This document shows, one piece after another, positions 845 to 61,100 of a DNA stretch of 64,000 bases. The stretch is from Nitrospirales bacterium. Its GTDB lineage: Bacteria > Nitrospirota > Nitrospiria > Nitrospirales > UBA8639. The notes beneath the pieces are model-generated. The model had not been told where the DNA came from. It saw only the letters and a list, made by a program, of their open reading frames with translations, and did not search any database. The stretch covers positions 672,001 to 736,000 of the forward strand of contig CBDCWC010000002.1 in NCBI GenBank assembly GCA_965223295.1. The letters are read 5' to 3'. Every line of letters starts with the position of its first letter. The stretch's first letter is position 1. Both the position numbers and the translations under genes were made by a program.

Positions 845-922
845 AGTGGGTTTCCCCCTTTCACCTGGTTCATGTTGAAATTGTGTGAATAGCGGTCTCA
901 TTCTTCACGACACATCCCACGC

Positions 923-1486
923 TCAGACCTCCTTTCTGTTTCGCGTGGCAATAGGTTCCAACGCCATAAGAATAGCATCCTCCGTAGGATTCGTATAGTA
1001 GGATTTTCGCGTGGCGTAGGATTGAAAATTAAAGCTTTTATAGAGATTAATGGCAGAATCATTAGACTCTCGAACTTCCAACATTCCTCGGCATGCGCTA
1101 GACTCGAGACCAATACTCAGGACTTCATGAATGAGTCGTTTAGCAAGTCCCTGACGACGAAATTCGGGATGAATGGCCAAATTGAGAAAGCGAATTTCCT
1201 CAAAAATAATCCATGCACAAATATAACCAATTGCTTGAACTTCAAGTCCATACTCCGGATGAGGGATGATAAGTACGTGGCTAAATTGATTGTCTATCAA
1301 CTCGGCCTCAAAACTTTTTCTGGACCAGGGGTAGGAAAAACAGGTTTCTTCTAGAGCCACTAGCACATCAAGATTCTTGGGTGTTGCTTGAAGAATATTC
1401 CATCGCGTCGGGTCATGCATAATGCAACCCTGTGACTGTTTTCTTTCTAAAGCTAATCGTGATATCTCCTCACGCTCATCTATCAT
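923..1486 (-). CDS. rimI: Ribosomal-protein-alanine N-acetyltransferase
   Basis: GNAT motifs FSYPWS, NLAIHPEFRRQGLA, LEVRESN, RKSYY; abuts tsaB. Confidence 0.9.
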   Translation of the reverse strand: MIDEREEISRLALERKQSQGCIMHDPTRWNILQATPKNLDVLVALEETCFSYPWSRKSFEAELIDNQFSHVLIIPHPEYGLEVQAIGYICAWIIFEEIRFLNLAIHPEFRRQGLAKRLIHEVLSIGLESSACRGMLEVRESNDSAINLYKSFNFQSYATRKSYYTNPTEDAILMALEPIATRNRKEV

Positions 1487-2194
1487 TTAGGGAGTCCTAG
1501 ATGCATCCGGAACTTGAGAGAACGACTCAGAAGTTTTTGCATATGACGGCTGAATATAGTGAGGCGCACAACCTTCAGGAAGATAGCGTCTTTCCTCGAG
1601 CAGTTTTTCCCCAGCCTGCCCGACGCTTTTTGCGGACGGCCACACGGCCTCTGAAGGAGCTTCCACAATAGGAAAACTCTGAACAGACAACCGTTCCTTA
1701 TTTCGCAGCCATCCATCCCCCAACAAGACTGTTGGTTCGGTCAACTCCTCAGAGATCTGACCAATCGTTCCGATTTGATCTGGTGTTATTCTCATGAGAG
1801 TCTGCTGTTGCCATCGGAAACGACTCCAATAGACCATATCTGCGCGAATGGCCACGGTACACATAATCGGCAACTCTTCAACCGGTAGATTCCACGCCAA
1901 ACCTTCTAACGTCGGGACCCCAACTAAGGGAATACCTAATGCCAGTCGAAAAGCCGTCATGGTCGCAAGCCCAACACGCAAACCCGTAAATGTTCCAGGC
2001 CCAATTGAGACAGCTAACCCTTCAAGGTTAGTCATTTTGAGCGAGGTTACCTCAAGAAGCTTATGAATGGCAGGAATGATTTGTGTGGTCAAAGAACGGG
2101 AAGAATCGCATTCTACATAGCCCAGAAGTTCATCATTCTGTAAAATGGCGACACTAGAGCATGATGTTGCCGTTTCGAGGGCCAAGACAATCAA
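1487..2194 (-). CDS. tsaB: tRNA threonylcarbamoyladenosine biosynthesis protein TsaB
   Basis: LALETAT and AVSIGPGTFTGLRVG motifs. Confidence 0.92.
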   Translation of the reverse strand: MIVLALETATSCSSVAILQNDELLGYVECDSSRSLTTQIIPAIHKLLEVTSLKMTNLEGLAVSIGPGTFTGLRVGLATMTAFRLALGIPLVGVPTLEGLAWNLPVEELPIMCTVAIRADMVYWSRFRWQQQTLMRITPDQIGTIGQISEELTEPTVLLGDGWLRNKERLSVQSFPIVEAPSEAVWPSAKSVGQAGEKLLEERRYLPEGCAPHYIQPSYAKTSESFSQVPDASRTP

Positions 2195-2246
2195 CGCAAA
2201 ACCATATTCTTATTCGTATGCCACATTCTTAAACATAACGGACTCC

Positions 2247-3056
2247 CTATGTCGCATTCAGAATGAGCTCTTGGAAATTCAAAGTAATCGAGCCTCCGCT
2301 TGGCCGATGATCTGTGGCATTCACCACAAAAGGCAATCGAAAAAGATCTCCCTCTGTGACAGAAGGCATCTTCACCTCCCGGTAATCTTCACATTCCACA
2401 GAGACAATCACATCGTCATACGATTGCCGATATTCAATAGCAGTCAATTCTAAAGTCTTCGCATCAACCCAGGTACGGACATGATACGTCTCTTCGCTTT
2501 TGTGATCCTCAGTCTGTCGAGCCGCCATATCTAAACGATAATGCGTAGAAGATTTCGAAATATGGATATCTTCTCTTGATAACCCTTCGATTTTCCCCAA
2601 GACGGCATCAAGGGCTCGAATACTCAAATGAACAGTTTGATCCCATTGAGTGCCAGCACTTCCCTCATCTATTTCGCCGGTAATAAGATTATTTTCAGCT
2701 GGAAAATAGAGTTGATACTGACTTCCTTCACGATGAAAATCCATCATAGGAACCCCGACTCGTAAAAACCCCCGTAGATGCACTCTGTCAGGACTCACAT
2801 AGGACACCATCCCATTAAAGCCCTGTGAAAATGGAAGCCCTGACCCGGAAATGGAGGCTCGAAAGAGTCCTCGAAGCGTGCGGATCATGCTTTCTTTTTG
2901 ACGCAACGTTTCAAGCACAACACGGCTTTGCTCGTGAGATAGAGGAGTAAACGCCCCCTGGTTCATGGCGGTACAACCCACCAGCCACACCATGAATGTG
3001 ACCACCATGCCTTTAAGAAAAACCGAAGATTTTCTCAAAAAGTGTCTATCTCTCAC
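2247..3056 (-). CDS. Putative lipoprotein, possibly LolA/LolB-like beta-rich fold
   Basis: 269-aa ORF with LVGC lipobox, abutting radA; fold is a guess. Confidence 0.55.
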   Translation of the reverse strand: MRDRHFLRKSSVFLKGMVVTFMVWLVGCTAMNQGAFTPLSHEQSRVVLETLRQKESMIRTLRGLFRASISGSGLPFSQGFNGMVSYVSPDRVHLRGFLRVGVPMMDFHREGSQYQLYFPAENNLITGEIDEGSAGTQWDQTVHLSIRALDAVLGKIEGLSREDIHISKSSTHYRLDMAARQTEDHKSEETYHVRTWVDAKTLELTAIEYRQSYDDVIVSVECEDYREVKMPSVTEGDLFRLPFVVNATDHRPSGGSITLNFQELILNAT

Positions 3057-4436
3057 TTACACCACCGGAGATAAAACCACATCCCAAATTTCCTCAATTT
3101 CCTGAATGCCCAACACCTCTATTCCTTCAATGGGCTTCCATTGCTTAAGGTTCGAGTTGGGCACCACGCATCGTGTAAACCCCAACTTCATGGCTTCTCG
3201 AATGCGAAGATCGGCATGTTGAACGGGCCGCACTTCTCCGCCAAGACCCACTTCACCCATGACAGCAAGACGGGCATCAAGACCCGTTTCTCGAAAACTC
3301 GATAACACCGCACACACAATTCCGACATCGACTGTAGGCTCATCAATTCGCAGCCCGCCCACAACATTGATATACACATCATGCCCGGTAAAATGCAGGC
3401 CTAACCGTTTTTCCATCACCGCCAATAATAACGCAACCCGATTGTTTTCTATTCCCTTAGCCATTCGTTTGGGCATGGGGTAACTGGTTTCAGCCACCAG
3501 AGCCTGTAGCTCCACCAATAACGGACGAGAGCCTTCGACACTGGACACGACAACAGACCCCGGACTTGTTCCGATGCGGCCAGTTAAAAACATAGCTGAA
3601 GGATTATCCACTTCAGTAAGACCTTCATCTTTCATTTCAAACACGCCGATCTCATTGGTCGGTCCAAACCGATTTTTGACAGCACGAAGAATGCGGTAGC
3701 TTTGGCCTTTGTCCCCTTCAAAATACAACACCGTGTCAACAATATGCTCCAACAAGCGTGGCCCGGCTATCACTCCTTCTTTTGTGACATGACCAATGAT
3801 GAATACAGGAACATTCATACGTTTGGCATACCACATGAGTTGGCAGCCAATTTCCTGAACTTGACTCACACTTCCCGGAGCCGAAGTCAACTCTCCCGAG
3901 AACACAGTTTGAATGGAATCGACGACCAAGACATGCGGCCTTACGGTTTCGGCTACTTGAAAAATTTCTTCAAGGGCCGTGGCAGCAACAACGTATAAAT
4001 TGGGAGGCCGAATTCCTAACCGGTCGGCTCGCATTTTGATTTGCTGAGGAGATTCTTCCCCCGAGACGTACAGACCAATTTCTGCCGACTGCTCTAAAGA
4101 ATTGAGGGTTTGTAGCAGTAAGGTGGTTTTGCCAATACCTGGATCGCCACCGATGAGAACAACCGACCCTGGCACCACCCCACCACCAAGTACGCGGTTT
4201 AATTCTTCTATCCCAGATTGCAGACGAAATTCGTGTGTCTGATTGATCGCCCCGATCGGAATCGCTTCCGGGGTACTGCCAGCGACCGTGCGCTGCTTTA
4301 GGGCCGAAGCATTTCGCTGGACTTCTTCCCGCAGAGAATTCCATTCCCCACATTCTGGGCATCGGCCACTCCAGCGAACACCCTGGTGACCGCATTCCTG
4401 ACAGACAAAGCGTGTTTTAGATTTAGCCGCTTTCAT
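3057..4436 (-). CDS. radA: DNA repair protein RadA/Sms
   Basis: C4 zinc finger CQECG...CPECG, Walker A GDPGIGKTT, KNRFG motif. Confidence 0.97.
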   Translation of the reverse strand: MKAAKSKTRFVCQECGHQGVRWSGRCPECGEWNSLREEVQRNASALKQRTVAGSTPEAIPIGAINQTHEFRLQSGIEELNRVLGGGVVPGSVVLIGGDPGIGKTTLLLQTLNSLEQSAEIGLYVSGEESPQQIKMRADRLGIRPPNLYVVAATALEEIFQVAETVRPHVLVVDSIQTVFSGELTSAPGSVSQVQEIGCQLMWYAKRMNVPVFIIGHVTKEGVIAGPRLLEHIVDTVLYFEGDKGQSYRILRAVKNRFGPTNEIGVFEMKDEGLTEVDNPSAMFLTGRIGTSPGSVVVSSVEGSRPLLVELQALVAETSYPMPKRMAKGIENNRVALLLAVMEKRLGLHFTGHDVYINVVGGLRIDEPTVDVGIVCAVLSSFRETGLDARLAVMGEVGLGGEVRPVQHADLRIREAMKLGFTRCVVPNSNLKQWKPIEGIEVLGIQEIEEIWDVVLSPVV

Positions 4437-4456
4437 CGTGTTCTGTTAGTGATACT

Positions 4457-4647
4457 GGGTCTGTTGAAAAAAGCCGCCAGCGGCGTTCTCGCCATTGTTC
4501 CGTGCTCACGTCGTGCCAGGACGCTCCGCGCGCAACAATGGCTGCGGCCTTACTGGACGAACTTTTTTGAACAGACCCGACGTTGTTGATCGCCAAGGGC
4601 TTCATGGCGAAATATGGCTCTTGATATCTTCATTATTCAACACTCCC
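4457..4647 (+). mobile_element. ~190-bp MITE, copy 1
   Basis: Ends GGGTCTGTTGAAAAA...TTATTCAACACTCCC; flanks ATACT/ATGCT (4 of 5 match). Confidence 0.85.
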
Positions 4648-4668
4648 ATGCTGAAACGGTCTCCTTCA

Positions 4669-5535
4669 TTAGAGATGGCGGCGAACACGGGACCAATCAG
4701 TCAAAATAATAGCTCGCCGTGGAAAGCGCTCATCGTTTTCAGGGAAAGGTAAAATAAGGGTTTGCAAACGGTTTTTCACGAGCACTTCGGCAAAGTCTGC
4801 GGTGCGCCCGATTCCGCCGCTGACGTTTTCCCATCCTTCTTCCTTAAAGTGCATGAGCAATTCACTTAAAGCCGTCGCTGTACCGGGAAGAATACGAATC
4901 ACGCCTGGTGGAAAATGCTGTGCTCGCAACCATGATTGAATCCCATCCAACTTTCCCTTTCCAGTCCGATCCAAATACACAAGGTTATAATAAAACTTTG
5001 CTAATTTATGAAGTTCCGCAGGGGCAGCAGCATTCGGAGTCCCAAAAACCAATCCAGGATCTGGAAACAGATCGGGAGGGGGAGCCTGGGTGTCAAATTC
5101 ACGGTCGACCAACACTGCCAAATCAATCAGCAATATAGGCCGTCGTCTCTCCCAGGACAAAACGACACCGTTTCCTGACACCACATTGGCTTTTGCAGAA
5201 GTTGCCCACTTAGCTTGTAATGATAAATTGCCCCGCATTTTAGGGGTAAACTCTAGATGCGCCCAACCATTGTCATTAGTCGAGGCTTGGCCAATCTTAC
5301 GCCCCTGAATGGAAAACTCCACCGGCTCTTCAGACATTCCGATTTCACCATTTGGACCCTGTTCAGTCAGGCGGGCTTGCAATTGGACAGTCTTACTCGG
5401 GAATGTCAGAGCATCAGTTACGAATAGTTCAATATTCCGGTCTCCCGGCCACACCATAAAAGGGCAAGCGAAACACATCATTACGATAGTGCTCCAAACG
5501 AAACTCCATCTCAAATCTTTTCGTATGTTCCACAT
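4669..5535 (-). CDS. Hypothetical membrane-anchored protein with Ig-like domain and degenerate HAD-like C-terminal domain
   Basis: N-terminal hydrophobic helix; QARL...PVEF...STNDNGWAHL Ig-like segment; ILLIDL and GGIG motifs. Confidence 0.5.
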   Translation of the reverse strand: MWNIRKDLRWSFVWSTIVMMCFACPFMVWPGDRNIELFVTDALTFPSKTVQLQARLTEQGPNGEIGMSEEPVEFSIQGRKIGQASTNDNGWAHLEFTPKMRGNLSLQAKWATSAKANVVSGNGVVLSWERRRPILLIDLAVLVDREFDTQAPPPDLFPDPGLVFGTPNAAAPAELHKLAKFYYNLVYLDRTGKGKLDGIQSWLRAQHFPPGVIRILPGTATALSELLMHFKEEGWENVSGGIGRTADFAEVLVKNRLQTLILPFPENDERFPRRAIILTDWSRVRRHL

Positions 5536-5559
5536 GATTGTAGAGCGTTCACTTCATAG

Positions 5560-5799
5560 CTAAAAAAGTCCCCGCCCTCTCTTGCCAAAAGCAAACGCAT
5601 CGACTCCAGCAAAAATGCATAGTTGCAGATAAAACAACCAGCCCATCGGCCAGAAAAATTTGGAAATCACCAGCATGAGAACCCCACACACAAGAAAAAT
5701 TGGCGCACGCTTGACGCCTAAATACATATGTCCCATACCAGGCAGAATCGACAGCAGCGCAGCGCCCAGACCATTTAGCGTTTTTTCACGTTCATCCAT
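5560..5799 (-). CDS. Small membrane protein (TM2-like)
   Basis: AALLSILPGMGHMYLG signature. Confidence 0.6.
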   Translation of the reverse strand: MDEREKTLNGLGAALLSILPGMGHMYLGVKRAPIFLVCGVLMLVISKFFWPMGWLFYLQLCIFAGVDAFAFGKRGRGLF

Positions 5800-5879
5800 A
5801 AAAAATAGTCTTGCTGTATCTGGCCAGTAAACCGAAGCTATGGTCAACCATACCACGCACCCTGGCAGAGTGCCAAAGC

Positions 5880-6066
5880 GGGCCTGTTGAAAAAACCACC
5901 AGCGCCGTTCCCTGGCTTTGCCGGGCCTACTTCGCCGCAGTGGCTACGAAGGCTGAAAGCGGCTTCGTGCAGGCGAGCAGACTTTTTTGAACAGCCTCGG
6001 AGCTCTTGAAACCAAGGTCATTATAGGCAAATTTGCCTCTGGTGCGTTGTAATATTCAACACTCTC
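5880..6066 (+). mobile_element. MITE copy 2, degenerate; core replaced by nested palindromic modules
   Basis: GGGCCTGTTGAAAAAA...CTTTTTTGAACAGCCTC...ATATTCAACACTCTC; no clean target duplication. Confidence 0.7.
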
Positions 6067-6142
6067 AAGGAGGGCCACAAGCCAGAATATCTGATGAACC
6101 AAGTTAACCCAGAATACAAAAGTAGGACTGGCGGGAAAGAAT

Positions 6143-6427
6143 TTAGCCAAGCTTGCGCTTGCGTAACTCTTCTTCAAATGTTTTGTGATAGAGCACATCC
6201 CATTCCTGGGAACCTTCGGGAATATTGCGGGAATAGGATGCCAAACGGCCGCGAACATGTCGATCCAGCTCGGCTTCAACTTTCATATGTTCGGCAATGA
6301 CAAGTTTGACTTCACGAAGGACTTTGGCCTGACCACCAACCAACCTGGCTTGCGGCGCACTTTTCAAGCGGTCCAAAATGACATGAGATAAATGCATTTG
6401 CTTATCGTCACTGAGTGAAAGCGCCAT
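6143..6427 (-). CDS. DUF507-family protein
   Basis: LSDDKQMHLSHVI...RLASYSRNIPEGSQEWDVLY pattern; tandem with next gene. Confidence 0.7.
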   Translation of the reverse strand: MALSLSDDKQMHLSHVILDRLKSAPQARLVGGQAKVLREVKLVIAEHMKVEAELDRHVRGRLASYSRNIPEGSQEWDVLYHKTFEEELRKRKLG

Positions 6428-6472
6428 AGGAAGATTAGTTCCAATCAATCTGAATTGCGGCTACAGGTATCA

Positions 6473-6754
6473 CTATAAAACAAGTCCGCGTTCCTTAATC
6501 AGTTTTTGTTTGACCATTGAAAACATTTTCTGATAATCCGCGCGGCCTTCCGTAAACTCTCGATCAAACTGTTTGAGCATCTCACGCACATCGGCGTTCA
6601 ACCGATCTTCAACTTGCAATTCTGTTGTAATCGCCGACTCTACCTGTTGAATCACGGGATCGGGTTTTCCGTCGACTTGCAAAAGGCCTCGCTCCATCAA
6701 ACGTTCCACGACGATGGTAGCCATATGACGAACACGTGTGGTATTTAGTCGCAT
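6473..6754 (-). CDS. DUF507-family protein
   Basis: EDRLNADVREML...DYQKMFSMVKQKLIKERGLVL pattern. Confidence 0.75.
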   Translation of the reverse strand: MRLNTTRVRHMATIVVERLMERGLLQVDGKPDPVIQQVESAITTELQVEDRLNADVREMLKQFDREFTEGRADYQKMFSMVKQKLIKERGLVL

Positions 6755-7149
6755 GAGGTTCCCTCAGGAAGCAATTCGACTTGCATGGTGGTGGCCCCCA
6801 CCGCCTGTTGTAAGACTTTCGCGTCACCCTCTATCTTACCAATGACATTCACACGATCGGCAGGCACAGGGTCTTCTCCTAAACTCATGGGCGTCCGTCC
6901 AAAAAAAATGGCTAGCATTTCCCCTATGCCCCAAAACGCAACATCCCCTATTTTTACCTGATTTTTCGCGGTTTCCCGATAATCTTTCACACCTGGAACT
7001 TTACAATAAAATTCTTCTCCCCATTGATTCACCGGAGCATTGAGTGGAAGCGCATCGACGATGGCTTGAGCCGTCCGATTGGGTTTTAATTCAGCAACGA
7101 CTTGAATGCCACCAATAGTAATCTTGATCTTTTGTGCACGAAATTCCAT
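6745..7149 (-). CDS. Cyclophilin-like fold protein
   Basis: TAQAIVDALP...WGEEFY...GDVAFW...LAIFFGRTP...VNVIGKI. Confidence 0.75.
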   Translation of the reverse strand: MEFRAQKIKITIGGIQVVAELKPNRTAQAIVDALPLNAPVNQWGEEFYCKVPGVKDYRETAKNQVKIGDVAFWGIGEMLAIFFGRTPMSLGEDPVPADRVNVIGKIEGDAKVLQQAVGATTMQVELLPEGTSCD

Positions 7150-7264
7150 ATAGCCTCAATTTTTGTTGATATCCTGATACATGAACAATGAACAACTGCC
7201 GAATGTAGCTTGTCCTCTTGATGAAATCAAGGCTAGAATGAAATGCAGTTTGACCTGACTTTCT

Positions 7265-8041
7265 ATGTTGCCTTCGACATTTATCTTTTTACAGGGAATT
7301 GGAGAATCTACTGAAAAGAAGCTTTGGGAATATGGTATTCTCAACTGGGAGTCCTTTCTTCAAGAATCATCAATTCCCTTTATTTCTCCTGCTCGCAAAG
7401 CCCTGTATGATGCCATCCTGCAAGAAGCCAACGAGCAATGGCATCAAGGCAATTCCCGTTATTTCGCGAAATTATTAAAAGCCAGAGACCATTGGCGCCT
7501 GTACCCTCATTTTCGAACAAATACCGCATTTTTAGATATTGAAACTAATGGCCTTCCAGCACCACATGGAAAGATTACGCTTGTTGGAATTTATGGGCGG
7601 GGCCACATGACCACCTTGATTCAGGGGGAGACACTTTCCGAACATCGCCTGAAAGATGAACTCTCGTCATATGATTTATTCGTCACCTTCTTCGGCTCAG
7701 GATTTGATTTGCCCTTTCTGAAAGCCACTTACCCCTGCCTTCACATTGATCAACCTCATCTGGATGTCTGTTTTGCAGCAAGAAGGCTCGGCATGAAAGG
7801 CGGATTAAAAGCCATCGAATATGAAATAGGATGTCATCGGAAAAGCTCATTAGAAGGCTTAACGGGATGGGATGCCGTACGGCTGTGGCATGAATGGCAG
7901 AACGGGAGTCAAGCTTCGCGAGAAACCTTAATGGCCTACAATGAAGCCGACTGCAAGAACTTAGAACCCTTAACAGATCTGATTTGTGAGCGAATGGTCC
8001 AAGCATATGGTCCACCTGAAATGACGACTAGTTTTTTATGA
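7265..8041 (+). CDS. YprB-like RNase H-fold exonuclease
   Basis: AFLDIETNG, TFFGSGFDLPFL, GGLKAIE, YNEAD motifs; N-terminal GIG hairpin-like segment. Confidence 0.8.
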   Translation: MLPSTFIFLQGIGESTEKKLWEYGILNWESFLQESSIPFISPARKALYDAILQEANEQWHQGNSRYFAKLLKARDHWRLYPHFRTNTAFLDIETNGLPAPHGKITLVGIYGRGHMTTLIQGETLSEHRLKDELSSYDLFVTFFGSGFDLPFLKATYPCLHIDQPHLDVCFAARRLGMKGGLKAIEYEIGCHRKSSLEGLTGWDAVRLWHEWQNGSQASRETLMAYNEADCKNLEPLTDLICERMVQAYGPPEMTTSFL

Positions 8042-8853
8042 CTACCGTACCACCACAAACCTGGATTGGAGTTGGGCTCACCGATATCGGTCGAGTGCGC
8101 AAAATGAACCAAGATGCTTTTTCAGTTCATCACGATCAACAGTTGTGGGTTTTAGCAGATGGCATGGGAGGACATGCCGGTGGAGAAATTGCAAGTCAAA
8201 TTGCGGTGGAGACTATTCCAGAAGAGTTTCAACGTCTCCTAGCGGCAAGTCCAACGACTTCACTTGTTATAGAGACAGTTGAATCCTATCTTGTACAGAC
8301 TATAGAAACGGCGAATCAGCGTATTCGTACGCTAGCCAGCCAAAAAAGCGAACTAAAAGGCATGGGCACAACTATTGTAGTAGTCGTTATCACGCAGCAT
8401 AACAACACAAGTTACGCGGTAATCGCACATGCTGGAGATAGCCGTGCTTACTGCTTTCGCCAGGAAACCCTGACTCTCTGGACCAAAGACCATACGCTCA
8501 TGGAAGAGCGGCTGGCCCTCAAGATCATTACCCCGGAACAGGTTCGTACACATCCGCTCCGTCATGTGCTGACCAAAGGACTCGGCATTGATGTCCAAGC
8601 CCTTCCTACAGTTCAAACATATGAGTTAGAAGCTATGGACCTCCTCTTGCTCTGTTCAGATGGGCTCACCAAGATGCTCAGTGATCTAGAGATTCAAACA
8701 CTCCTCAAAAGGGGTGCGCCAAAATTGAAAGAAGTTGCGAACTCACTGGTGGATACAGCGAACCGCTTAGGAGGCGAAGACAATACAACGGTGATCGTGA
8801 TTGGGGCTGACTCAGACGCAACCCTGGTCAATGTGCCGCAGTCTACCGACTAG
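8038..8853 (+). CDS. PP2C-type Ser/Thr phosphatase (Stp1/PrpC family)
   Basis: RKMNQD, ADGMGGH, GDSRAY, CSDGL, GGEDNTT. Confidence 0.93.
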   Translation: MTTVPPQTWIGVGLTDIGRVRKMNQDAFSVHHDQQLWVLADGMGGHAGGEIASQIAVETIPEEFQRLLAASPTTSLVIETVESYLVQTIETANQRIRTLASQKSELKGMGTTIVVVVITQHNNTSYAVIAHAGDSRAYCFRQETLTLWTKDHTLMEERLALKIITPEQVRTHPLRHVLTKGLGIDVQALPTVQTYELEAMDLLLLCSDGLTKMLSDLEIQTLLKRGAPKLKEVANSLVDTANRLGGEDNTTVIVIGADSDATLVNVPQSTD

Positions 8854-9583
8854 GCCGTCGGAACAACGCCGACCACCCAAAATATCCAACTGCATCTTTC
8901 ATATTGGAAAACCAGCGGTGTGCGAACCCCATAGCGGGGTCCGTGACATACTGCATTGTCAAGACAATGCGCTCTTCTCCCTTAGCCGATGGGGTCACCG
9001 CATGATGCAATTTATCTCCATTGAAAAAAATACACGTTCCAGGTTCAGTGGCTAAGGAGAGCTCTTTGACCTGCTTCCCCGCATCTTTTGTATGAAGACG
9101 GCAAACTAGTCGACTGCTAGAATGATCACGCAAACCGATCAACACCGTATACCGGGCCCCTTTGTAATAGGAAGTATCATAGTGATAGCCAATATGATCG
9201 CCAGGCTCGGTATAAAAATAGAGCGCACAGGCATGGGGATCTTCATCTGGGCAGAGCAACAGGGGGGCTCCAGCCACCTGACTAAGAACACTGATCCAAT
9301 CGTTATTCTGATACAAGGTCAGCATAGAAGGAGCAGAATCTTGAAGAACATAAGAGCTTACGCTTCCGCCCTTTTTATGCTTAGGAATAAAGTTACGATT
9401 GATTTTTGGGCGGACAGTATCAACTTCCTGCATCAACTCATCGATCAAAGACGTTGGCAATAATCTCTCCAATGCCAAAAATTCTCCCTGTTCCCAATAC
9501 TGTCGTGACCAGTCGTCTCTATCGACCTGAGTTATAAGGTCTGAGACCTGCTGACTAGTACTATTGACTAAAATTGGCGACAT
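8843..9583 (-). CDS. 2OG-Fe(II) oxygenase (HalD/BesD-like scaffold)
   Basis: HYD facial motif, distal HHAVT, downstream Arg (ERIVL). Confidence 0.75.
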   Translation of the reverse strand: MSPILVNSTSQQVSDLITQVDRDDWSRQYWEQGEFLALERLLPTSLIDELMQEVDTVRPKINRNFIPKHKKGGSVSSYVLQDSAPSMLTLYQNNDWISVLSQVAGAPLLLCPDEDPHACALYFYTEPGDHIGYHYDTSYYKGARYTVLIGLRDHSSSRLVCRLHTKDAGKQVKELSLATEPGTCIFFNGDKLHHAVTPSAKGEERIVLTMQYVTDPAMGFAHRWFSNMKDAVGYFGWSALFRRPSR

Positions 9584-9772
9584 CTAAAATTCCTCTGCCT
9601 TACCGTTTTTCTCGACAGAAACTCACATATATATCTGGCTTTCTATCATGCCAGTAAAAAAACTGTATCGTCCAGCTAAATATCGTAGGTGACTTGACCA
9701 CCACCAGCTCAGACTTTTATCGTCTCGCTTGATGAATAAATATTTCAGATACATTTCTCACATTAAGGACTG

Positions 9773-10450
9773 ATGAAACCTATGAGTCTTCTCCCCTATC
9801 GTGATCTTATTCTTGGCCAAGATTACTGGATCCAAGACAATGTGTTGCCCAGTGCTCTTGAAGTCGCTCAACGCTGCATGACATTTACAACATGGACCCT
9901 AGGTTCGCCATGGCGTCAAGAACCTTGGCCTGGCATGAGAGCCCCTCAGGCGTTGCTGCCTCAAGAAATGCACACGATTGAAACCTGCGTCAAACAACAC
10001 TTGAACGTCCCAACCCTCACCCCTCAGACAGATTCGGAAGCAGGCCTCTCTGGACATAACCATATTCAGATTTGTGGTGGATCAGAAGGGGTGGCACGCC
10101 CCCATGTCGATTCGGCCAGAATCTGTGACTATGCGGCCGTCCTTTATTTGCATCCAAACCCGCCCACCACTCACTGTGGAACTTCATTTTATCGCTTACA
10201 TCTTCCTGGAGAAACGCCGGATGGAAATTACTGCCCGAAAGAACATGAAAGTCTCAGCGAAGTACCTGGGATCTCCCGGGAAATGGACCCCACGATGTTC
10301 GAGGAAATTCTAGAGGCACCCTATGTCTTCAATCGTCTGGTCGCCTATAAAGCTGACCTCATTCACTCCGCCACTGGCTATTTCGGCTGGGATCATGCCT
10401 TAGCCTCAAAACGGATGGCCGTCGTCTTTTTCTGGAAAGCTCCGACGTGA
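9773..10450 (+). CDS. DUF6445-like 2OG-Fe(II) oxygenase
   Basis: WPGMR, PHVD, AAVLYL, GTSFYR, FNRLVAY...IHSA, KRM. Confidence 0.75.
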   Translation: MKPMSLLPYRDLILGQDYWIQDNVLPSALEVAQRCMTFTTWTLGSPWRQEPWPGMRAPQALLPQEMHTIETCVKQHLNVPTLTPQTDSEAGLSGHNHIQICGGSEGVARPHVDSARICDYAAVLYLHPNPPTTHCGTSFYRLHLPGETPDGNYCPKEHESLSEVPGISREMDPTMFEEILEAPYVFNRLVAYKADLIHSATGYFGWDHALASKRMAVVFFWKAPT

Positions 10451-10466
10451 TAATGGCAAATTTATG

Positions 10467-11003
10467 CTATGGACTTTTCTGAGAAAATATTTTTATTTTG
10501 AGTATGTAGGCCGCGCTAAAGCCTAAGGCCAAGCCAATTCCCCATCCTGCTAACACATCCGTCATGTAGTGGGCGCCCAGATAGATCCGTGAGAGACCGA
10601 TAAGACCCATGAGCGGCCATAAGATCCAGCCCAGCGTAGGATACAGCACAACCAGGAATGCGATGGCCGTGCTGGAGTTCAAGGCATGGTTGGACGGCAG
10701 GCTGAAACTTCCACCACAGCCTACCAGCTCATGAACCTGTGTAAGAATTTGGCAGGGTCGCGGACGCGCAATCAGATTTTTTAGTTGCCCGCCTAGTAAG
10801 TCACTGAACCCGATCAATAGCCCTAAAGTCGGTAGAGCAAACTTTGCTTCGTCCCATCTACGCCAACCCCAATAGGCCATGGCCAATATTCCGGGAATAA
10901 TTAAATTGCTCTCTTGGGAGCATTGGAACATGAGCCAATCCAATTCAGGCAACTGCCCGGCCCATCCGTTAATGACTCGAAACCATTCTTCGTCAAATGA
11001 CAT
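10467..11003 (-). CDS. PAP2-family membrane phosphatase
   Basis: K-x6-RP, PSNHA, SRIYLGAHYMTD. Confidence 0.9.
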   Translation of the reverse strand: MSFDEEWFRVINGWAGQLPELDWLMFQCSQESNLIIPGILAMAYWGWRRWDEAKFALPTLGLLIGFSDLLGGQLKNLIARPRPCQILTQVHELVGCGGSFSLPSNHALNSSTAIAFLVVLYPTLGWILWPLMGLIGLSRIYLGAHYMTDVLAGWGIGLALGFSAAYILKIKIFSQKSP

Positions 11004-11123
11004 GGATGAGACTCACGATATGTGTACATTCTGGATTCAAGAACGACGATCTTTGCCTTACTCTCTGCAGCAAATCTGTTTGATATGCTACCATGCTCTT
11101 TTGAATAATAAAGGAGTGATTGC

Positions 11124-11906
11124 ATGTTGATTGATACCCATGTGCATTTAGATGATGCCCGATATGACGCTGACCGTGAAGCCGTGTTTCAGCGCGCAGA
11201 AGCAGCAGGTGTCGGGGCTTTCATTACGATTGGTTGTGATTTGACCACCAGTACAGCAGCCGTGAAATTAGCCGCTGAGCGTTCGAATGTCTATGCCACG
11301 GTAGGAGTGCATCCCCACGAAGTCAAACGAATCGAGCCTCACTGGTATGAAGAACTCCAACAATTAGCTCAGCAACCTAAGGTTGTAGCGTTTGGAGAAA
11401 TTGGTTTGGATTATCATTATGATCATTCCCCACGTGAGATCCAACGCCAGCAATTTCGAGAACAAGTCACCATAGCCAAATCTCTAAACCTCCCCCTGGT
11501 CATTCATACACGGGAAGCACAGGAAGATACGATGACCATTCTTCAGGAAGAGCAAGCTGAATCCGTCGGAGGCGTGTTTCATTGTTTTTCCGGAGATCCG
11601 TGGTTGGCCAAAGAGGCTCTAGATTTAGGTTTCTACCTGTCGTTTTCGGGAATCATCACGTTTCGTAATGCCACGCTGCTTCGAGATGTGATCCGCACGG
11701 TGCCTGATGATCGCATCTTAATCGAAACAGACGCTCCGTATTTAACGCCGGTTCCCTTTCGAGGAAAACGCAATGAATCGGCCTATGTCAAACATGTTGC
11801 CGAACAGATCGCGGAATTAAAATTTGGCGACTCGACAACCGGGCTCTCCGAAATATCAGAACTCACCACACATAACGCCCAGCGTCTCTTTAAAATTTCT
11901 TCATAA
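11124..11906 (+). CDS. tatD: TatD-family hydrolase/DNase
   Basis: DTHVH, GVHPH, GEIGLD, HCFSG, ETDAPYL. Confidence 0.93.
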   Translation: MLIDTHVHLDDARYDADREAVFQRAEAAGVGAFITIGCDLTTSTAAVKLAAERSNVYATVGVHPHEVKRIEPHWYEELQQLAQQPKVVAFGEIGLDYHYDHSPREIQRQQFREQVTIAKSLNLPLVIHTREAQEDTMTILQEEQAESVGGVFHCFSGDPWLAKEALDLGFYLSFSGIITFRNATLLRDVIRTVPDDRILIETDAPYLTPVPFRGKRNESAYVKHVAEQIAELKFGDSTTGLSEISELTTHNAQRLFKISS

Positions 11907-12438
11907 TACGATTCCGTTGACGTAGTTTTTTGGGCAATTTCCGCGGATTGCCTTTCTTCTCTTTTGGCCGTGTTGACATATCTTCACTGGCCTCTTTTCC
12001 CTCCGGTCCGGCTCGAGAAGACCGAGCAGACGAACGTGCTTGACTCCCCCTGTGCAAACGAGTGAGAAATTCCTGTGACCGGATCACAAACGCGCCAAAG
12101 GCTCGCGCCACGTTGGCAACTTCAAGATCGGATGATACCACAGCCGTCTCTTTTCCAAACCTCCGAATTAATTGTTGAATGACTTGATCGGCTCGTTCCC
12201 CTTCCGCCGAATATATCACAGTCACTCCCGTATGATGAGACGTCTGTCGGTTATTTCCTGATTGCCGCCACGCATCAAACACAACGGTAATAGGACAATG
12301 TATACTCTGCCCATACAAACCGAGACGCGTGACAAATTGTTCGCGGTGGACTTCTCCTGATCCAATAACTTTCTGAGGAGGAAGCCCCGTGGCCCCTAAC
12401 ACATTATAGCCATCAATGATAAGATGTTGTGGTGTCAT
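11890..12438 (-). CDS. NYN-domain (YacP/Rae1-like) ribonuclease
   Basis: IIDGYNV, VVFDA, ADQVI, VVSSD. Confidence 0.85.
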   Translation of the reverse strand: MTPQHLIIDGYNVLGATGLPPQKVIGSGEVHREQFVTRLGLYGQSIHCPITVVFDAWRQSGNNRQTSHHTGVTVIYSAEGERADQVIQQLIRRFGKETAVVSSDLEVANVARAFGAFVIRSQEFLTRLHRGSQARSSARSSRAGPEGKEASEDMSTRPKEKKGNPRKLPKKLRQRNRIMKKF

Positions 12439-12574
12439 ACTTGAAAGCTAGGCCCTATACAATGACAAAGTTCTAATGTCCAGTCTACACTTCAATGAGC
12501 GACGATGCACCTCAACCTTATCTTGACAAGAAATAAATCATCTGCGAAAAAATAGAGGAACGGTTGAATTTTCT

Positions 12575-13852
12575 ATGTTTTACTTGCGAACGATAGTTTT
12601 CTATTCCTATCTGGTGCTTCTTTTTTCCACCTTTGCTCCAACCTGGGCGGGGGAAGGTGGGCTCCGTCTGCCGGTGCAAGAAGAATCATTCCCTCCGTTC
12701 CAATTAGTGGCAAAACGTTCGAACGAGAGCATGGTTCGAAATATTCGAACCCACCAGCATAAAACCTACACTCGTTTAGTCTTGGACATCGATCAAGATA
12801 TTCATCCCGCACCATCCGACCAGCACAGGAATCAATCATTTCAACTCAAGCTTCCTCATACACGTATTCTCAAACGAGCGCTGTCAAAAACGAACGGCAA
12901 AAATTTTCCGATTACCATACATGTGTCAAGAACGAAGCAAGGATCTCTTGTCCTCACCATACCCACCAAATCTTGGAAGAAATACAAGTGGTACGTCCTG
13001 CAAAATCCTGCTCGGCTGGTCTTAGATTTATATCCGGATTCATCACAACCCACTACAGTTGTGAAAGCACCGAAAGCTTCGGCAAAATCATCGGTGACAC
13101 CTCAGGTAACAAAAAAGACTCCATCGTCTCCTGTCGTTGTGCCTCCTCCTAAAGCCCTCACGCAGAAAAAACAGATGATCATTGTGCTTGATCCGGGCCA
13201 TGGAGGGAAAGACCCGGGTGCTTTAGGTGGAAAAGGTACGAAAGAGAAGGATATTGTTTTAAAAATTTCTCGTCATCTTCGTGACCTGTTAGCAAAACAA
13301 ACTGGCGCCAAAGTATTAATGACGCGCGAAAAAGATATGTTTATCGAATTAGAAGATCGAGCGATCTTTGCCAACAAACGCAAAGCCGACTTGTTCGTCT
13401 CAATTCATATTAACTCCAATACGAAAAAGTCTATAAGAGGGCTGGAAATGTATCACTTCGGAGAAGCCAGCGATCCGCGGGCCCTTGAAGTGTCCGCGCG
13501 AGAAAACGGCACACCGCTTCAAGATAATGGACCAGCCTGGCAATTCATCCTTGCAGATAAGCTGCATGACAAAAAAATTGAAGATTCCCAGGAGTTTGCC
13601 TGGACGACGAAAAAAGCGCTTGTGAATTATTTAAAGCCTTTTTACAAAGTCAAAGATCACGGGGTTAAAACGGCCCCCTTCTTTGTCCTTCGCATGACCA
13701 CCATGCCAGCCATCTTGGCCGAAATTGCTTTCATCTCAAATCCCACTGAAGAAAAACTTCTCAAAAGTTCAAAATATCAAAAACGCGTGGCTCAAGGAAT
13801 CTTTGAAGGCATCAAATCGTACATCAAACCTCTACAAACCGCCTCTCGATAA
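12575..13852 (+). CDS. N-acetylmuramoyl-L-alanine amidase with AMIN-like N-terminus
   Basis: LDPGHGGKDPGA, ADLFVSIH, LAEIAFISN; RLVLD repeats. Confidence 0.92.
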   Translation: MFYLRTIVFYSYLVLLFSTFAPTWAGEGGLRLPVQEESFPPFQLVAKRSNESMVRNIRTHQHKTYTRLVLDIDQDIHPAPSDQHRNQSFQLKLPHTRILKRALSKTNGKNFPITIHVSRTKQGSLVLTIPTKSWKKYKWYVLQNPARLVLDLYPDSSQPTTVVKAPKASAKSSVTPQVTKKTPSSPVVVPPPKALTQKKQMIIVLDPGHGGKDPGALGGKGTKEKDIVLKISRHLRDLLAKQTGAKVLMTREKDMFIELEDRAIFANKRKADLFVSIHINSNTKKSIRGLEMYHFGEASDPRALEVSARENGTPLQDNGPAWQFILADKLHDKKIEDSQEFAWTTKKALVNYLKPFYKVKDHGVKTAPFFVLRMTTMPAILAEIAFISNPTEEKLLKSSKYQKRVAQGIFEGIKSYIKPLQTASR

Positions 13853-55074: not shown

Positions 55075-55264
55075 GGGGCTGTTGAATACTGATGATATTA
55101 ACGGCCAAATTTTCATCTCTGCGACGTCACATGTCAGAAGCCTCGGGTCTGTTCAAAAAGGTTCGTTCAGCAAGGCCGCAGCCATTCTTGCGCACGGAGC
55201 GTACTGATTATGTGAGCAAGGAAAAAGGGCGAGAACGCCGGTGACGGCTATTTTCAAAAGACCC
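55075..55264 (-). mobile_element. MITE copy 6, reverse orientation, diverged
   Basis: Reverse complement matches the family; tail resembles copy 3; no clean target duplication. Confidence 0.8.
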
Positions 55265-55307
55265 GTTAGTGTTTTTTCCGATCACTCCTGATACAATTTT
55301 ATTGTCC

Positions 55308-57167
55308 ATGCCGCCTGCCATTCATCCGATTGACCTCATTGAAATCCTTCGTGAGCACCAGTTAACTCCCGCCATTATCTTTTTGACTTCTCGACGCGGA
55401 TGCGACGAGGCTATCGACACCTTTCTCCATACGTCAGCGGGTATCTCAGCTTCTCATTCCGTAGCCATTCAGACATTTTTTGAACAATTTTCTCAAGAAT
55501 TCCCAAGTATCGCGGATCATCCCCTCATCCCTGTCGTGCAGGAATATGGCGTAGCCGCCCATCATGCAGGACATTTGCCTTCCTGGAAAATGGCTGTTGA
55601 AGAACTGATGCGGCGAGGGCTTCTAGATGCGGTGTTTGCCACCACCACTCTCGCCGCTGGTGTAGATTTCCCCGCCCGAACCGTAGTTGTGAGTCAATCC
55701 AGTGTCCGTAAGTCACAAGATTTTACAGATTTAACGGTCAGCGAAATTCAGCAGTTAGCTGGGCGAGGAGGACGCCGGGGAAAAGACTTTGTGGGATTTG
55801 TCGTCATTACCCCATCGCCATACATCGATTTGCATGTGTTAGGCAAGGGCCTCACGGGCCATCCTGAAGCCATTGATAGTCAATTTTTGGTCTCCTACCC
55901 TATGGTCTTGAATCTCCTCAAGGCTCATACAGTGGATCAAATCGAAGGACTGTTGGCCAAAAGTTTTGCACAGTTTCAACTGAATCAACGCGCCACGGTT
56001 CACCAAGATCGGTTGGATGACATAAACGAACAACTTGTGCCCTATGGTCCCAGAGAATGTGCGGATTGGGTGGCACAATGGAAAGTGTTCGATTTGGCCC
56101 GCCGCCGCAAAGCTCATCGCCGGCCAGTCCTGCATACTGATACACCCTATCTCAAGGCCTCTTTGCCATTCCTGACTCCAGGCCGCCTCGTTGCCTTGGC
56201 CAAAGGTCCCGCCATTATTCTTCGCCAATATCGAAGCCGCGGCACAGGCACCCCAATGTTGTCCGTCCTCCATGCAAAGGGGACCATTGGGGAATGCCAG
56301 GCACAACGCGTGGCACAGATCTACGATCAGGTGTATGACTTTCAACCCATTCGGACTTTACCGTGGTGTCCACCTCGCACTCTGCATCATTTTAAAACCG
56401 TCTTGACTCAATTGCCGTCCAGGCTGCCGACCGTGCCGATTTTTGAAGCCAAGCAAGACATGGAAGATCCGATGTTAACCGCTGTGCTCACAGATGAATT
56501 TGCCTGTCCGTCCTGCCCCTCACATGCCGCATGCAAGAAAGATTTCCCCCTCGCCTCACGCCTACGACTAAAAGCCCAACAACTCACGAAAACGATTCAG
56601 GCTTTACGTGATGGTCTGTGGCATCAATTTCAACAAAAGGGTGATGTGCTCCATAAATTTGACTACATCACTGCAAGCCTGCAATTAACACAAGACGGCG
56701 AATGGGCTCGTCTCATTCGCATTAACCATTCCCTGTTGATCACCGAACTCATTCGGATGGAGGCATTTTCCGGCGTAACGCCAGCTCTTCTGGCAGGAGT
56801 GATGGCAAGTATCGCCCATGACGATGATCGCCCTAGTTCCTATATGCGCCTATCGGCTGGGATGAGTTCAATGCTTTCTCAAGTGAGGCAGGTCGCCGAT
56901 TCACTTCATGCCTATGAACCAGCTCCGCTCCTGCGATCAGATGTCGCCGCGATCGCGGAACGCTGGATTGGACAGACCGATCTCAGTTGGACTTCCCTGG
57001 TCAAGTCCACTTCAATGGCTGAAGGTGATGTCTATCGTCTTTTAGCCAGAACCTTGGAATTTCTTTCACAAATCTATGGGCTTAAAGCGACCCATCCAGG
57101 GTTGGCAGATTCCGCTCATGCAGCCATGGTGAATATGCGACGGGAAGTCTTGGCCGAATTACCCTAA
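55308..57167 (+). CDS. HelY/Ski2-like helicase, C-terminal half (RecA2, winged helix, arch, DSHCT)
   Basis: PAIIFLTSRRGCD, HHAGHLP, FATTTLAAGVDFPA, QLAGRGGRRG, EGDVYRL; no Walker A/B; TGa-TACAAT at 55289-55297. Confidence 0.85.
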   Translation: MPPAIHPIDLIEILREHQLTPAIIFLTSRRGCDEAIDTFLHTSAGISASHSVAIQTFFEQFSQEFPSIADHPLIPVVQEYGVAAHHAGHLPSWKMAVEELMRRGLLDAVFATTTLAAGVDFPARTVVVSQSSVRKSQDFTDLTVSEIQQLAGRGGRRGKDFVGFVVITPSPYIDLHVLGKGLTGHPEAIDSQFLVSYPMVLNLLKAHTVDQIEGLLAKSFAQFQLNQRATVHQDRLDDINEQLVPYGPRECADWVAQWKVFDLARRRKAHRRPVLHTDTPYLKASLPFLTPGRLVALAKGPAIILRQYRSRGTGTPMLSVLHAKGTIGECQAQRVAQIYDQVYDFQPIRTLPWCPPRTLHHFKTVLTQLPSRLPTVPIFEAKQDMEDPMLTAVLTDEFACPSCPSHAACKKDFPLASRLRLKAQQLTKTIQALRDGLWHQFQQKGDVLHKFDYITASLQLTQDGEWARLIRINHSLLITELIRMEAFSGVTPALLAGVMASIAHDDDRPSSYMRLSAGMSSMLSQVRQVADSLHAYEPAPLLRSDVAAIAERWIGQTDLSWTSLVKSTSMAEGDVYRLLARTLEFLSQIYGLKATHPGLADSAHAAMVNMRREVLAELP

Positions 57168-57186
57168 CTAAAAAAAAAGAGCACTG

Positions 57187-58224
57187 ATGAATGATGCCGA
57201 TCTACAGCGTGAATTAGCTTCTCTCCCTGTCAAGTATTTACATCAACTCGCGAAAGGGCATATCCATCGGCATTTTCGACTTGGCAAGCGTCGCCTTATT
57301 GACAATATTCTGGCTCTCCCTCCTGATCAAAAAATGGCCATCGCCAGCGCATTAGAACAGAGATCTCCCATCCCCAAAACATCTCCATCTGAGCCAACGA
57401 CAGAAGAGGATCATACACTTTTTTACCCTCAACCTCGCTCGAAAAAAAGATCCCACCATCTCAAAGCCACATCTCCAGTCGTTGAACTGCCTGAGCTTCT
57501 TGACGGAATAGGAGTACCAGAACCCAAACCATTTGTTCCCGATCCTTGGCAGCAAGAGGCTGTGGAATCCATTGCTCAGACCGACGTCATTGTCAGTGCG
57601 CCAACAGGAAGCGGAAAAACTTATGTCGCACTTGAAGCCATCAAACAAGCGATGGCTGCGAATCAAACCGTGATCTACACCTCTCCACTCAAAGCACTTT
57701 CCAATACAAAATATATGGAATTCTCGCAATGCTTTGGATCTGATCAAGTGGGCATTCTGACAGGAGATCGGCGAGACAACGCACAAGCCCCGCTTCTGGT
57801 CATGACAACCGAAATTCTAAGAAACGTCCTCTATGACTCGGCCAGCGGAGATCTTGACCTTCGTCTTCATATGTTAGGATTAGTTATTCTTGATGAGTCG
57901 CAGTATTTAGCAGATCCGGAACGAGGAGTGGTGTGGGAAGAAACGCTTATTCTTTGTCCACCGCAAACTCGTTTGTTGTTGCTTTCTGCGTCAATCGGCA
58001 ATCCTCAGGAATTGGCTGAATGGTTGACCTCCATTCGTCCAACCCGGTGCCATCTCATTCGCCATACGACTCGATCTGTTCCTCTACGGGCACTCTATTT
58101 ACATCCCACAGGACAGCTTGTCCCTCTTCTCGACAAACGAGATATTCAGCAGCAAAAGAGCTATCGGTTTCACCCAGAAACCAAACGTTTATTTGCCCAT
58201 TATGAATTTAAATCTTCACGTTAA
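57187..58224 (+). CDS. HelY/Ski2-like helicase, N-terminal half (RecA1)
   Basis: DPWQQEA, APTGSGKT, SPLKALSN, MTTEILRN, DESQYL, LSASIGN, RSVPL. Confidence 0.88.
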   Translation: MNDADLQRELASLPVKYLHQLAKGHIHRHFRLGKRRLIDNILALPPDQKMAIASALEQRSPIPKTSPSEPTTEEDHTLFYPQPRSKKRSHHLKATSPVVELPELLDGIGVPEPKPFVPDPWQQEAVESIAQTDVIVSAPTGSGKTYVALEAIKQAMAANQTVIYTSPLKALSNTKYMEFSQCFGSDQVGILTGDRRDNAQAPLLVMTTEILRNVLYDSASGDLDLRLHMLGLVILDESQYLADPERGVVWEETLILCPPQTRLLLLSASIGNPQELAEWLTSIRPTRCHLIRHTTRSVPLRALYLHPTGQLVPLLDKRDIQQQKSYRFHPETKRLFAHYEFKSSR

Positions 58225-60491: not shown

Positions 60492-61100
60492 TCACGATAT
60501 ATAGTCGATTAACTTTTTATTGATAAGCAAGAAAACCTGATCGAAAGCTTGAGCAAGAGGTCGTTTTGGAGTCATGATTTTACGCACCCGCACTCTAAGC
60601 ATACCCCAATAGTGTTCAATCGGATTGAGATCAGGGGAATACGTGGGCAAGAACTTGAGGGGACAGCCTCTCCTGGCGAGCAGGCTGTAAGTTTTCGGCG
60701 ATTTATGGCACGACGCGTTATCTATGATCACCGTTTGTCCGGGCTTGAGCTCAGAGAGTTACACCTCTTCCACCCACGTATTCAAGACTTGCGTAGCACA
60801 GTACCCTTCAAATCGCATGGAGCCAGCAGAGGGGAACCATTCAAAGCGGCAATGAGACTGATGCGGTGGGCTCGAGTCCCCGAGACTTCACCCATCACTT
60901 TGGTGCCGCGAAGCGCGTGCCCGTATGGACGGTGGAACGAGGCATCAACGCCACTTTCATCTAGGTACACAAGGCTTTTCGGTTCTAACCCTGCCAGCTC
61001 TTTTTGAAACTGACGGCGAGCCGCCTCGTTGCGCTCGCCGTAAAGTACAGTTTTTTTTCGAGTGATCGCCAGACGCTGACAGGTTTTCCAGACGGCACTA
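60492..61100 (-). pseudogene. IS630-family transposase remnant
   Basis: TRKKT, YLDESG, IDNASCHK, LPTYSPDLNPIE; frameshift near 60818, in-frame TAA, N-terminus missing. Confidence 0.88.

Follow-up and report, generated by a model that had tools for sequence, protein, structure and literature searches.

A probable two-subunit Ski2/HelY-type helicase, encoded C-terminal half first, in Nitrospirales

Two adjacent genes in the genome of a Nitrospirales bacterium (assembly GCA_965223295.1, contig CBDCWC010000002.1) appear to encode the two halves of a single superfamily 2 (SF2) helicase of the Ski2/HelY type, with the C-terminal half placed first. They lie in a stretch of 64,000 nt (positions 672,001 to 736,000 of the contig; hereafter the window, whose own numbering is used throughout), and we put the probability that the locus encodes a maintained two-subunit helicase at about 0.8, the binding of the subunits to each other and their activity being predicted. 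Gene A (HelY C-half; 55308..57167, + strand, as are all gene features below; 619 amino acids, aa) carries a RecA2 domain with motifs IV–VI, a middle region with an invariant cysteine cluster and a C-terminal DSHCT domain. Gene B (HelY N-half; 57187..58224, 345 aa), delimited by its open reading frame (ORF), Pfam and alignment, carries RecA1.

Pfam assigned Helicase_C (E 5.3e-6) and DSHCT (E 1.4e-22) to A, and DEAD (E 2.3e-23, residues 120–274, behind an N-terminal extension) together with a DEXQc_Suv3 match to B. NCBIfam returned only partial matches, A matching the back half and B the front half of Hel308-type models. By the usual helicase motif names, the aligned segments show B to contain motifs Q, I (PTGSGKT), Ia, Ib, II and III (SAS), and A to contain motifs IV, V (TTTLAAGVDFPART) and VI (QxxGRxGRRGKD). 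The RecA2 core spans residues 1–215 of A (55308..55952), starting with MPPxIHP and holding motif IV at residues 21–30, motif V at 112–125 and motif VI at 149–159, and the DSHCT domain (PF08148, profile positions 3–170 of 172) spans residues 459–615 (56682..57152). RecA1 occupies residues 98–298 of B (57478..58080), with motif II reading DESQ and the RSVPL segment following motif III. A first-pass annotation, made by a model from the sequence alone, had already divided the motifs in this way, with IV–VI and the C-terminal helical domains in A and Q and I–III behind an extension in B, and Pfam and the alignments agree with it.

The pair fits onto single-chain relatives. B residues 104–334 align with 51% identity to residues 41–268 of P0085, a single-chain relative of 911 aa that carries the name Desulfarculus baarsii, and A residues 9–607 align to its residues 283–899 with 31% identity. 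Since A and B tile P0085 without gap or overlap, they are the parts of a single helicase; the cut falls after the RSVPL region and before motif IV, and no part is missing. The closest single-chain relatives that we found belong to Desulfobacterota and Acidobacteriota (50–58% identity to the B core, ~30–35% to A), and databases list the full-length relatives of A and B under the names 'ATP-dependent RNA helicase HelY' and 'DEAD/DEAH box helicase'. The best solved relatives are identical for the two halves, namely Mtr4, Ski2 and FRH, with profile E values against Mtr4 of 6e-55 for B and 3e-51 for A, and a Foldseek E value of 1e-16 for the RecA1 fold of B against Mtr4. Among the traits of Ski2-like/HelY helicases, the RecA1 motifs are present in B, and the RecA2 motifs IV–VI and the DSHCT helical-bundle domain in A; a DExH motif II and a single polypeptide with RecA1 before RecA2 are the traits that the pair lacks. 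To our knowledge, all characterised Ski2/Mtr4/HelY helicases are single chains, and nothing on a split HelY/Ski2 helicase turned up in word searches of open-access papers. For B, the 120 best longer relatives (7999 candidates scored) are 654–977 aa long and combine DEAD with DSHCT and/or Helicase_C, as ordinary single-chain HelY-like proteins do by Pfam content, irrespective of domain order. No permuted single chain with an A-like part first was present in the long proteins among the best 150 of 7326 representatives matched by A. A split intein was rejected, the end of B and the start of A mapping to contiguous P0085 residues (268 and 283) with no extra sequence.

The distribution of the halves was followed in 41 relatives, including the source genome, and in a phylum-wide sample of 251 genomes. 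Counting each genome once, A is directly followed by B in 80 of the 86 Nitrospirales genomes with both halves. Both were found in 38 of the 41 relatives and were adjacent, A then B, in all 23 genomes of the genus, all five of family f2 (the Nitrospira family) and all five of family f3. None of the five f4 genomes has them adjacent: they lie on different contigs in four and 13.5 kb apart in the fifth, where B is broken at a contig end. Two incomplete genomes of this sample (66% and 83% complete) have neither half, and one further genome has A only. Within the phylum-wide sample, the pair is present and adjacent in 18/18 genomes of family f1, while 37 of the 39 f2 genomes carry both halves (adjacent in 36), one carries A only and one neither; the 194 genomes of other families gave no match at E<=1e-20. 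In the separated f2 pair (G267), A and B are on different contigs and 3 kb of sequence continues past A. Thus, in the genomes searched, the halves are present together or absent together, save for a single A-only genome whose contig stops 160 nt past A. Both are absent in G002, G011 and G217, the last an f2 genome of 2.0 Mb that is 99% complete. The Nitrospirales genomes searched yielded no contiguous helY gene, and the source genome (3.78 Mb, 3 contigs, 100% complete) contains no second copy of either half.

At the junction, gene A terminates at TAA 57165–57167, and a further TAA (57169–57171) lies in the frame of B upstream of its ATG, B being in the +1 frame relative to A; both stops are as the first-pass annotation had given them when it argued that they preclude a fused protein. 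The 19-nt spacer (57168..57186) contains a run of nine adenines and a purine-rich stretch before the ATG of B. Spacers measure 18–24 nt in the genus and 56–147 nt in other f1 genera and most f2 genomes, whereas in f3 and in two genomes of f2 the genes overlap by 4 nt (ATGA/GTGA). Given this range, from an overlap of 4 nt to a gap of 147 nt, and the variable relative frame, no fusion or recoding is conserved; A and B share one frame in none of the 25 adjacent loci examined, and a fusion or recoding product was rejected because stops, relative frames and spacer lengths vary between relatives. The junction is spanned by contigs of three public runs, which belong to two studies. No RNA run was listed as containing the sequence, and the one RNA run compared had none of this stretch. 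The adenine run (57170) is one or two bases shorter in contigs of other runs, and, being intergenic, its length leaves both frames unaffected.

The longest ORF of gene A (55269..57167, + strand, GTG start, 632 aa) begins upstream of the start used here. Judging by the alignments, the conserved start is the ATG at 55308 and not this GTG: a matching ATG start with a 618–621-aa product occurs in 22 of the 30 gene-A rows of relatives compared, MPPxIHP opens all 27 aligned A proteins with M1, P3, H6 and P7 invariant, and the GTG falls within an interspersed repeat. This repeat of ~190 bp (55075–55265), directly upstream of gene A, has 40 scored matches in the source genome (249 first-look candidates) with 80–91% identity on both strands. 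Public contigs end at it, word depth rises there to about 900–13,000, and it could be a MITE-like element (miniature inverted-repeat transposable element).

Both halves are under purifying selection, as far as substitution rates tell. Nei–Gojobori (NG86) ratios of non-synonymous to synonymous rates (dN/dS), computed for 12 genomes of the genus with pairs of dS 0.02–1.5 kept, were 0.063 for the whole of A (9 of 66 pairs), 0.089 for the whole of B (7 of 66), 0.034 for RecA1 of B (9 of 66) and 0.23 for its N-extension (9 of 66). Motifs Q, I, Ia, Ib, II and III of B and motifs IV, V and VI of A are invariant in 27 sequences from four families. Four cysteines of A are equally invariant in 27/27 Nitrospirales sequences: C251 (56058–56060) and C400, C403 and C409 of a CPxCPxxxxC motif (56505..56534), all placed by alignment; perhaps they form a zinc site. 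At motif II (57895–57906, B residues 237–240), 12 of 15 Nitrospirales sequences have DESQ and the other 3 have DEAQ, the f4 version. Elsewhere it is DE[A/V]H in 65 of 69 non-Nitrospirales rows, with no motif found in two.

A complex was predicted from our own alignments of both halves. The A–B model reached an ipSAE (interaction prediction score from aligned errors) of 0.84 in three of three runs, the best of three controls scoring 0.00; of 80 solved complexes, 58 attain the mark applied, as do 2 of 110 mismatched pairs, a calibration that is only rough. At least 87% of contacts agree between runs, and the predicted local distance difference test (pLDDT) of the partners is at least 76. The most confident contacts join B residues 299–305 (PLRALYL, after RSVPL) to A residues 162–168 (VGFVVIT, the strand after motif VI), so that in the model B donates an edge strand to the RecA2 sheet of A. 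That strand opens the C-terminal tail of B (residues 299–345, 58081..58221), which also holds a conserved HPExKxLFxxYE and touches A along its entire length, the contacts past the strand continuing to residue 343. The motif I/II/III regions of B face the motif V/VI regions of A, and the first 19 and last ~40 residues of A also take part in the modelled interface, in which no B residue before 104 is named. The model shows that A and B can be arranged in the manner of an ordinary Ski2-like core, and actual binding is not implied by it. It also qualifies the first-pass statement that the break falls at the RecA1/RecA2 linker: the cut does lie between RSVPL and motif IV, yet it would not be a clean inter-domain one, the tail of B entering the RecA2 sheet of A.

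The N-terminal part of B, described at first pass as a ~110-aa extension, resolves into a confidently folded 57-aa four-helix domain (residues 1–59, 57187..57363) and a ~40-aa disordered, variable Pro/Ser-rich linker (residues 60–97, 57364..57477, pLDDT <50). The four helices have a pLDDT of about 85–90 within B and 87.6 when predicted alone (24 sequences). By fold, the domain looks SAP/Rho_N-like. VIA-align places the SAP region of FAN1 first (Z 7.9, root-mean-square deviation 2.2, 57 aligned), followed by the N-domain of Rho (Z 6.0) and the PIAS1 and SIZ1 SAP domains (Z 6.0 and 5.8), at Z values below 8 that are common for small helical models. Foldseek returned the same proteins, none at E<=0.001, the Atlas gave weak matches to Rho_N/SAP clusters (0.81), and Pfam gave nothing relevant for eight N-domains at E<=10. 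The domain thus looks like a tethered SAP/Rho_N-like module, which we offer as a lead and not as an assignment to either family. It is present in f1–f3 and absent in f4, and the Acidobacteriota N-halves described below do not have it. Three unlinked Acidobacteriota N-halves (L113, L115 and L120) carry a different N-extension of 150–190 aa, and its homology to the Nitrospirales domain was not supported (hhalign probability 0.3%, E 0.19). It had been suggested that the subunits assemble through the extension. This idea is not borne out, residues 1–103 of B being unnamed in the interface and both halves being kept in f4 and in the Acidobacteriota splits, where the domain is missing.

In the mechanism that we propose, B would supply RecA1 with the motifs for ATP binding and hydrolysis (Q, I, Ia, Ib, II and III), and A would supply RecA2, with motifs IV, V and VI and their arginines, together with the C-terminal domains. 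In Mtr4 and Ski2, these C-terminal domains close a ring around the nucleic-acid strand. With the ATP site lying between two proteins, neither subunit alone should hydrolyse ATP. Three elements would hold the enzyme together in the model: the C-terminal tail of B, whose strand 299–305 would add to the edge of the RecA2 sheet of A; the cleft contacts between motifs I/II/III of B and motifs V/VI of A; and the packing of RecA1 on the N-terminal helix and C-terminal helices of A. The N-domain of B, on its flexible tether, would be an accessory module that probably binds nucleic acid or a partner, and not glue. The analogy to HelY of M. smegmatis and to Mtr4/Ski2 makes an RNA-dependent ATPase and 3'-to-5' RNA helicase acting in RNA turnover the most likely identity of the enzyme. 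A more speculative proposal is that the split is functional and not merely tolerated. Activity would then depend on subunit assembly, the A-then-B order would have been selected so that A folds before the last-made C-terminal strand of B docks, and the ATP-binding subunit would be carried by its SAP-like domain to a nucleic acid or partner at which A is already waiting. That operon order follows assembly order is a known principle; we nevertheless consider this proposal as a whole rather doubtful.

Split forms of the helicase also occur outside Nitrospirales. A search of 1.84 billion representatives with A as query matched lone C-halves from other lineages (P0133, 621 aa; P0129, 446 aa; P0127, 554 aa). 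The P0133 cluster comprises eight proteins of 621 aa, of which seven lie on contigs of 3.2–10.9 kb, and one member of the P0129 cluster is named Acidobacteria and lies on a contig of 3.1 Mb. Among 251 Acidobacteriota genomes sampled, 16 encode N- and C-halves as separate ORFs (about 292–455 and 423–650 aa, respectively), and none encodes only one split half. Five of the 16 have the halves adjacent in the normal N-then-C order, with an ATGA overlap in two and spacers of ~30, ~155 and ~385 nt in the others; in the remaining 11 they are unlinked, on different contigs or 200 kb apart. A fused close relative (908 aa) was found in a single genome (G434), and six further genomes have more distant full-length forms only. 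Fused Acidobacteria-type proteins carry MPEMPP in the basic linker, exactly where the split C-halves start, and compare there with the MPP[A/S]IHP start of the Nitrospirales A proteins. The CPxCP motif, compared outside Nitrospirales in 17 rows, is common to A, P0085, P0127 and Desulfobacterota-type relatives and is absent from all 14 split Acidobacteria-type C-halves (including P0133 and P0129) and two fused ones (P0023 and G434). The Acidobacteriota series, the unlinked f4 family, the DESQ change and the SAP-like domain are new here.

Quick IQ-TREE trees, with support from the Shimodaira–Hasegawa-like approximate likelihood-ratio test only, were built for each half. Nitrospirales are monophyletic (100) on long stems in both. 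In the N-half tree (84 rows), they fall in a clade (97) with Acidobacteria-type sequences, both fused and split. The C-half tree (83 rows) leaves three groups as a polytomy, and its reduced version (30 rows) groups Nitrospirales with the Acidobacteria-type sequences with a support of 39. Within Nitrospirales, the unlinked f4 is basal (97) in the C-half tree only, the N-half tree differing. From the distribution of these sequences, we conclude that the split probably predates the swapped order or is independent of it: since the split occurs in normal order and unlinked in Acidobacteriota, the swapped order would be one of three states of an older split. The gene would have been split in the basic RecA1–RecA2 linker beside a pre-existing methionine, that of MPEMPP in the fused Acidobacteria relatives, the halves would then have become independent genes, and the A-then-B order of Nitrospirales would most likely have come about by secondary juxtaposition of the separated genes. 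The first-pass argument from gene order is retained in part: the locus is not a broken gene, but the reversed order was probably not the primary event, as normal-order and unlinked splits exist.

The same order could have arisen in place, by tandem duplication of helY, after which the first N-half and the second C-half were lost, the unlinked state of f4 being derived. Tandem duplication with partial losses is a classical route to permutation, and the tight adjacency (18–24 nt in the genus, 4-nt overlaps in f3) would suit it, as would the uncertain rooting within Nitrospirales, where f4 is basal in one tree. However, no Nitrospirales genome searched retains a fused gene, a duplicate or a remnant, the MPP start of A matches the linker motif of fused relatives, and the same split point is found in Acidobacteriota in normal order and unlinked; because the split exists there in other arrangements, it need not be tied to a permutation event. 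We regard this route as possible but improbable, and prefer the secondary juxtaposition of already separated halves. Gene decay, a frameshift introduced by sequencing or a faulty assembly has a negligible chance of accounting for the locus. The layout is unusual and the length of the adenine run differs between runs, but that run is intergenic, the junction is bridged as described, and 80 independent genomes, many of them closed, show the identical layout; frames are open, motifs invariant and dN/dS low. The circumstances under which the first-pass annotation would have been abandoned were thus not encountered: the arrangement is neither unique nor misassembled, contiguous genes appear among the relatives as fused forms in Acidobacteriota and not in the Nitrospirales genomes searched, and the whole-gene dN/dS of about 0.06–0.09 does not point to neutral evolution.

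A different challenge comes from function. Both proteins might be maintained without forming an obligate helicase, each having taken up its own task (A might be an RNA-binding adaptor, for instance, and B a nucleotide-binding or SAP-tethered factor), with adjacency reflecting shared regulation only. The unlinked halves of f4 (0/5 adjacent) and of 11 of the 16 split Acidobacteriota, the neighbouring genes unrelated to RNA metabolism and the change of motif II to DExQ in the Nitrospirales lineage would fit such a division. Yet all ATPase motifs are invariant on both sides, which is hard to explain if the composite site is unused, the halves are co-present or co-absent in the genomes searched, and the tail of B and the N-terminus of A are conserved and form the modelled interface. 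Two separate functions are therefore quite unlikely in our judgement, and the maintained heterodimeric helicase proposed at first pass is upheld by the adjacency in 80 of 86 genomes, purifying selection and the complex model with its controls, even if the last possibly reflects memory of the fold.

Several observations weigh against the two-subunit helicase and its proposed history. The success of the complex prediction may be memory of single-chain Mtr4/Ski2 folds. The dS values are near saturation, so that 54–59 of the 66 pairs were dropped and the dN/dS values come from few, related and non-independent pairs. Helicase activity with a DExQ motif II is assumed from Suv3-type DExQ helicases. 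Separate or additional roles of the halves are possible, above all where they are unlinked, and a contig end fails to account for the separation in G267 on the A side. The origin is weakly resolved, the N-half tree giving 97 where the C-half trees give a polytomy or a support of 39, and the CPxCP motif is one that A has in common with Desulfobacterota-type relatives but that the Acidobacteria clade does not have.

Compared with HelY of mycobacteria (MSMEG_3885 of Mycobacterium smegmatis, Rv2092c of Mycobacterium tuberculosis), the pair is likewise a Ski2-like SF2 helicase with RecA1, RecA2 and a DSHCT C-terminal domain. HelY is one chain, whereas here there are two genes with the C-half first, a comparison made at the level of the family; motif II is DESQ and not DExH, and B has the added SAP-like N-domain. 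According to 2015 work as cited in PMC8931766, HelY of M. smegmatis is an ATPase activated by RNA and a 3'-to-5' RNA helicase. Mtr4, Ski2 and FRH, the best solved relatives of both halves, differ from the split A and B in being single chains of about 1000–1290 aa (solved constructs or chains) with long N-terminal regions and an arch domain. A parallel for the split is found in Nanoarchaeota, in which Table 1 of PMC3655853 gives the genes of reverse gyrase and of a 'large helicase-related protein' as split; there too, as far as that source goes, helicase genes are kept as two ORFs at conserved or lineage-specific sites. Nanoarchaeota, however, have tiny symbiont genomes with many split genes, unlike the 2–5-Mb genomes here, which show no general splitting trend as far as we looked.

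A split kept through the history of an order and present in a second phylum indicates that this SF2 motor tolerates cutting, and the two-protein motor would be joined, in the model, by beta-strand donation. The fused, adjacent, unlinked and swapped states among relatives form a rare natural series for the study of gene fission and re-linkage, and equally for that of operon order in relation to assembly. The lone 554-aa C-half P0127 hints at further stand-alone halves. For annotation, two genes labelled 'DEAD/DEAH box helicase' in Nitrospira, which are key nitrite oxidisers, would be halves of one enzyme; public annotation of B reads 'DEAD/DEAH box helicase' or 'superfamily II RNA helicase'. 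The pair may also serve as a natural template for designing split helicase constructs.

The genes around the pair in the window encode a major facilitator superfamily (MFS) transporter, a ClC channel, a STAS protein, an unknown lipoprotein-like ORF and an Omp85-like protein, a context that gives no sign of a defence system or a dedicated RNA-decay operon. A Hachiman HamB or other defence helicase was considered and rejected, PADLOC matches spanning only 90–180 residues of helicase motifs at 45–57 bits; a defence partner gene was likewise rejected, the neighbours being the MFS transporter, ClC channel, STAS protein and Omp85-like protein. In f4, the two genes lie among sugar-nucleotide and carbamoyl-phosphate genes. 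NTP-transferase genes adjoin the A–B pair in one f2 genome (L074) and the lone B in two f4 genomes (L080 and L082), which could be a trace of a shared neighbourhood or a coincidence. Further downstream in the window, at 60492–60970 on the − strand, two short ORFs match parts of the DDE_3 transposase (E 8e-14 and 9e-5), and this segment looks like a broken insertion sequence copy.

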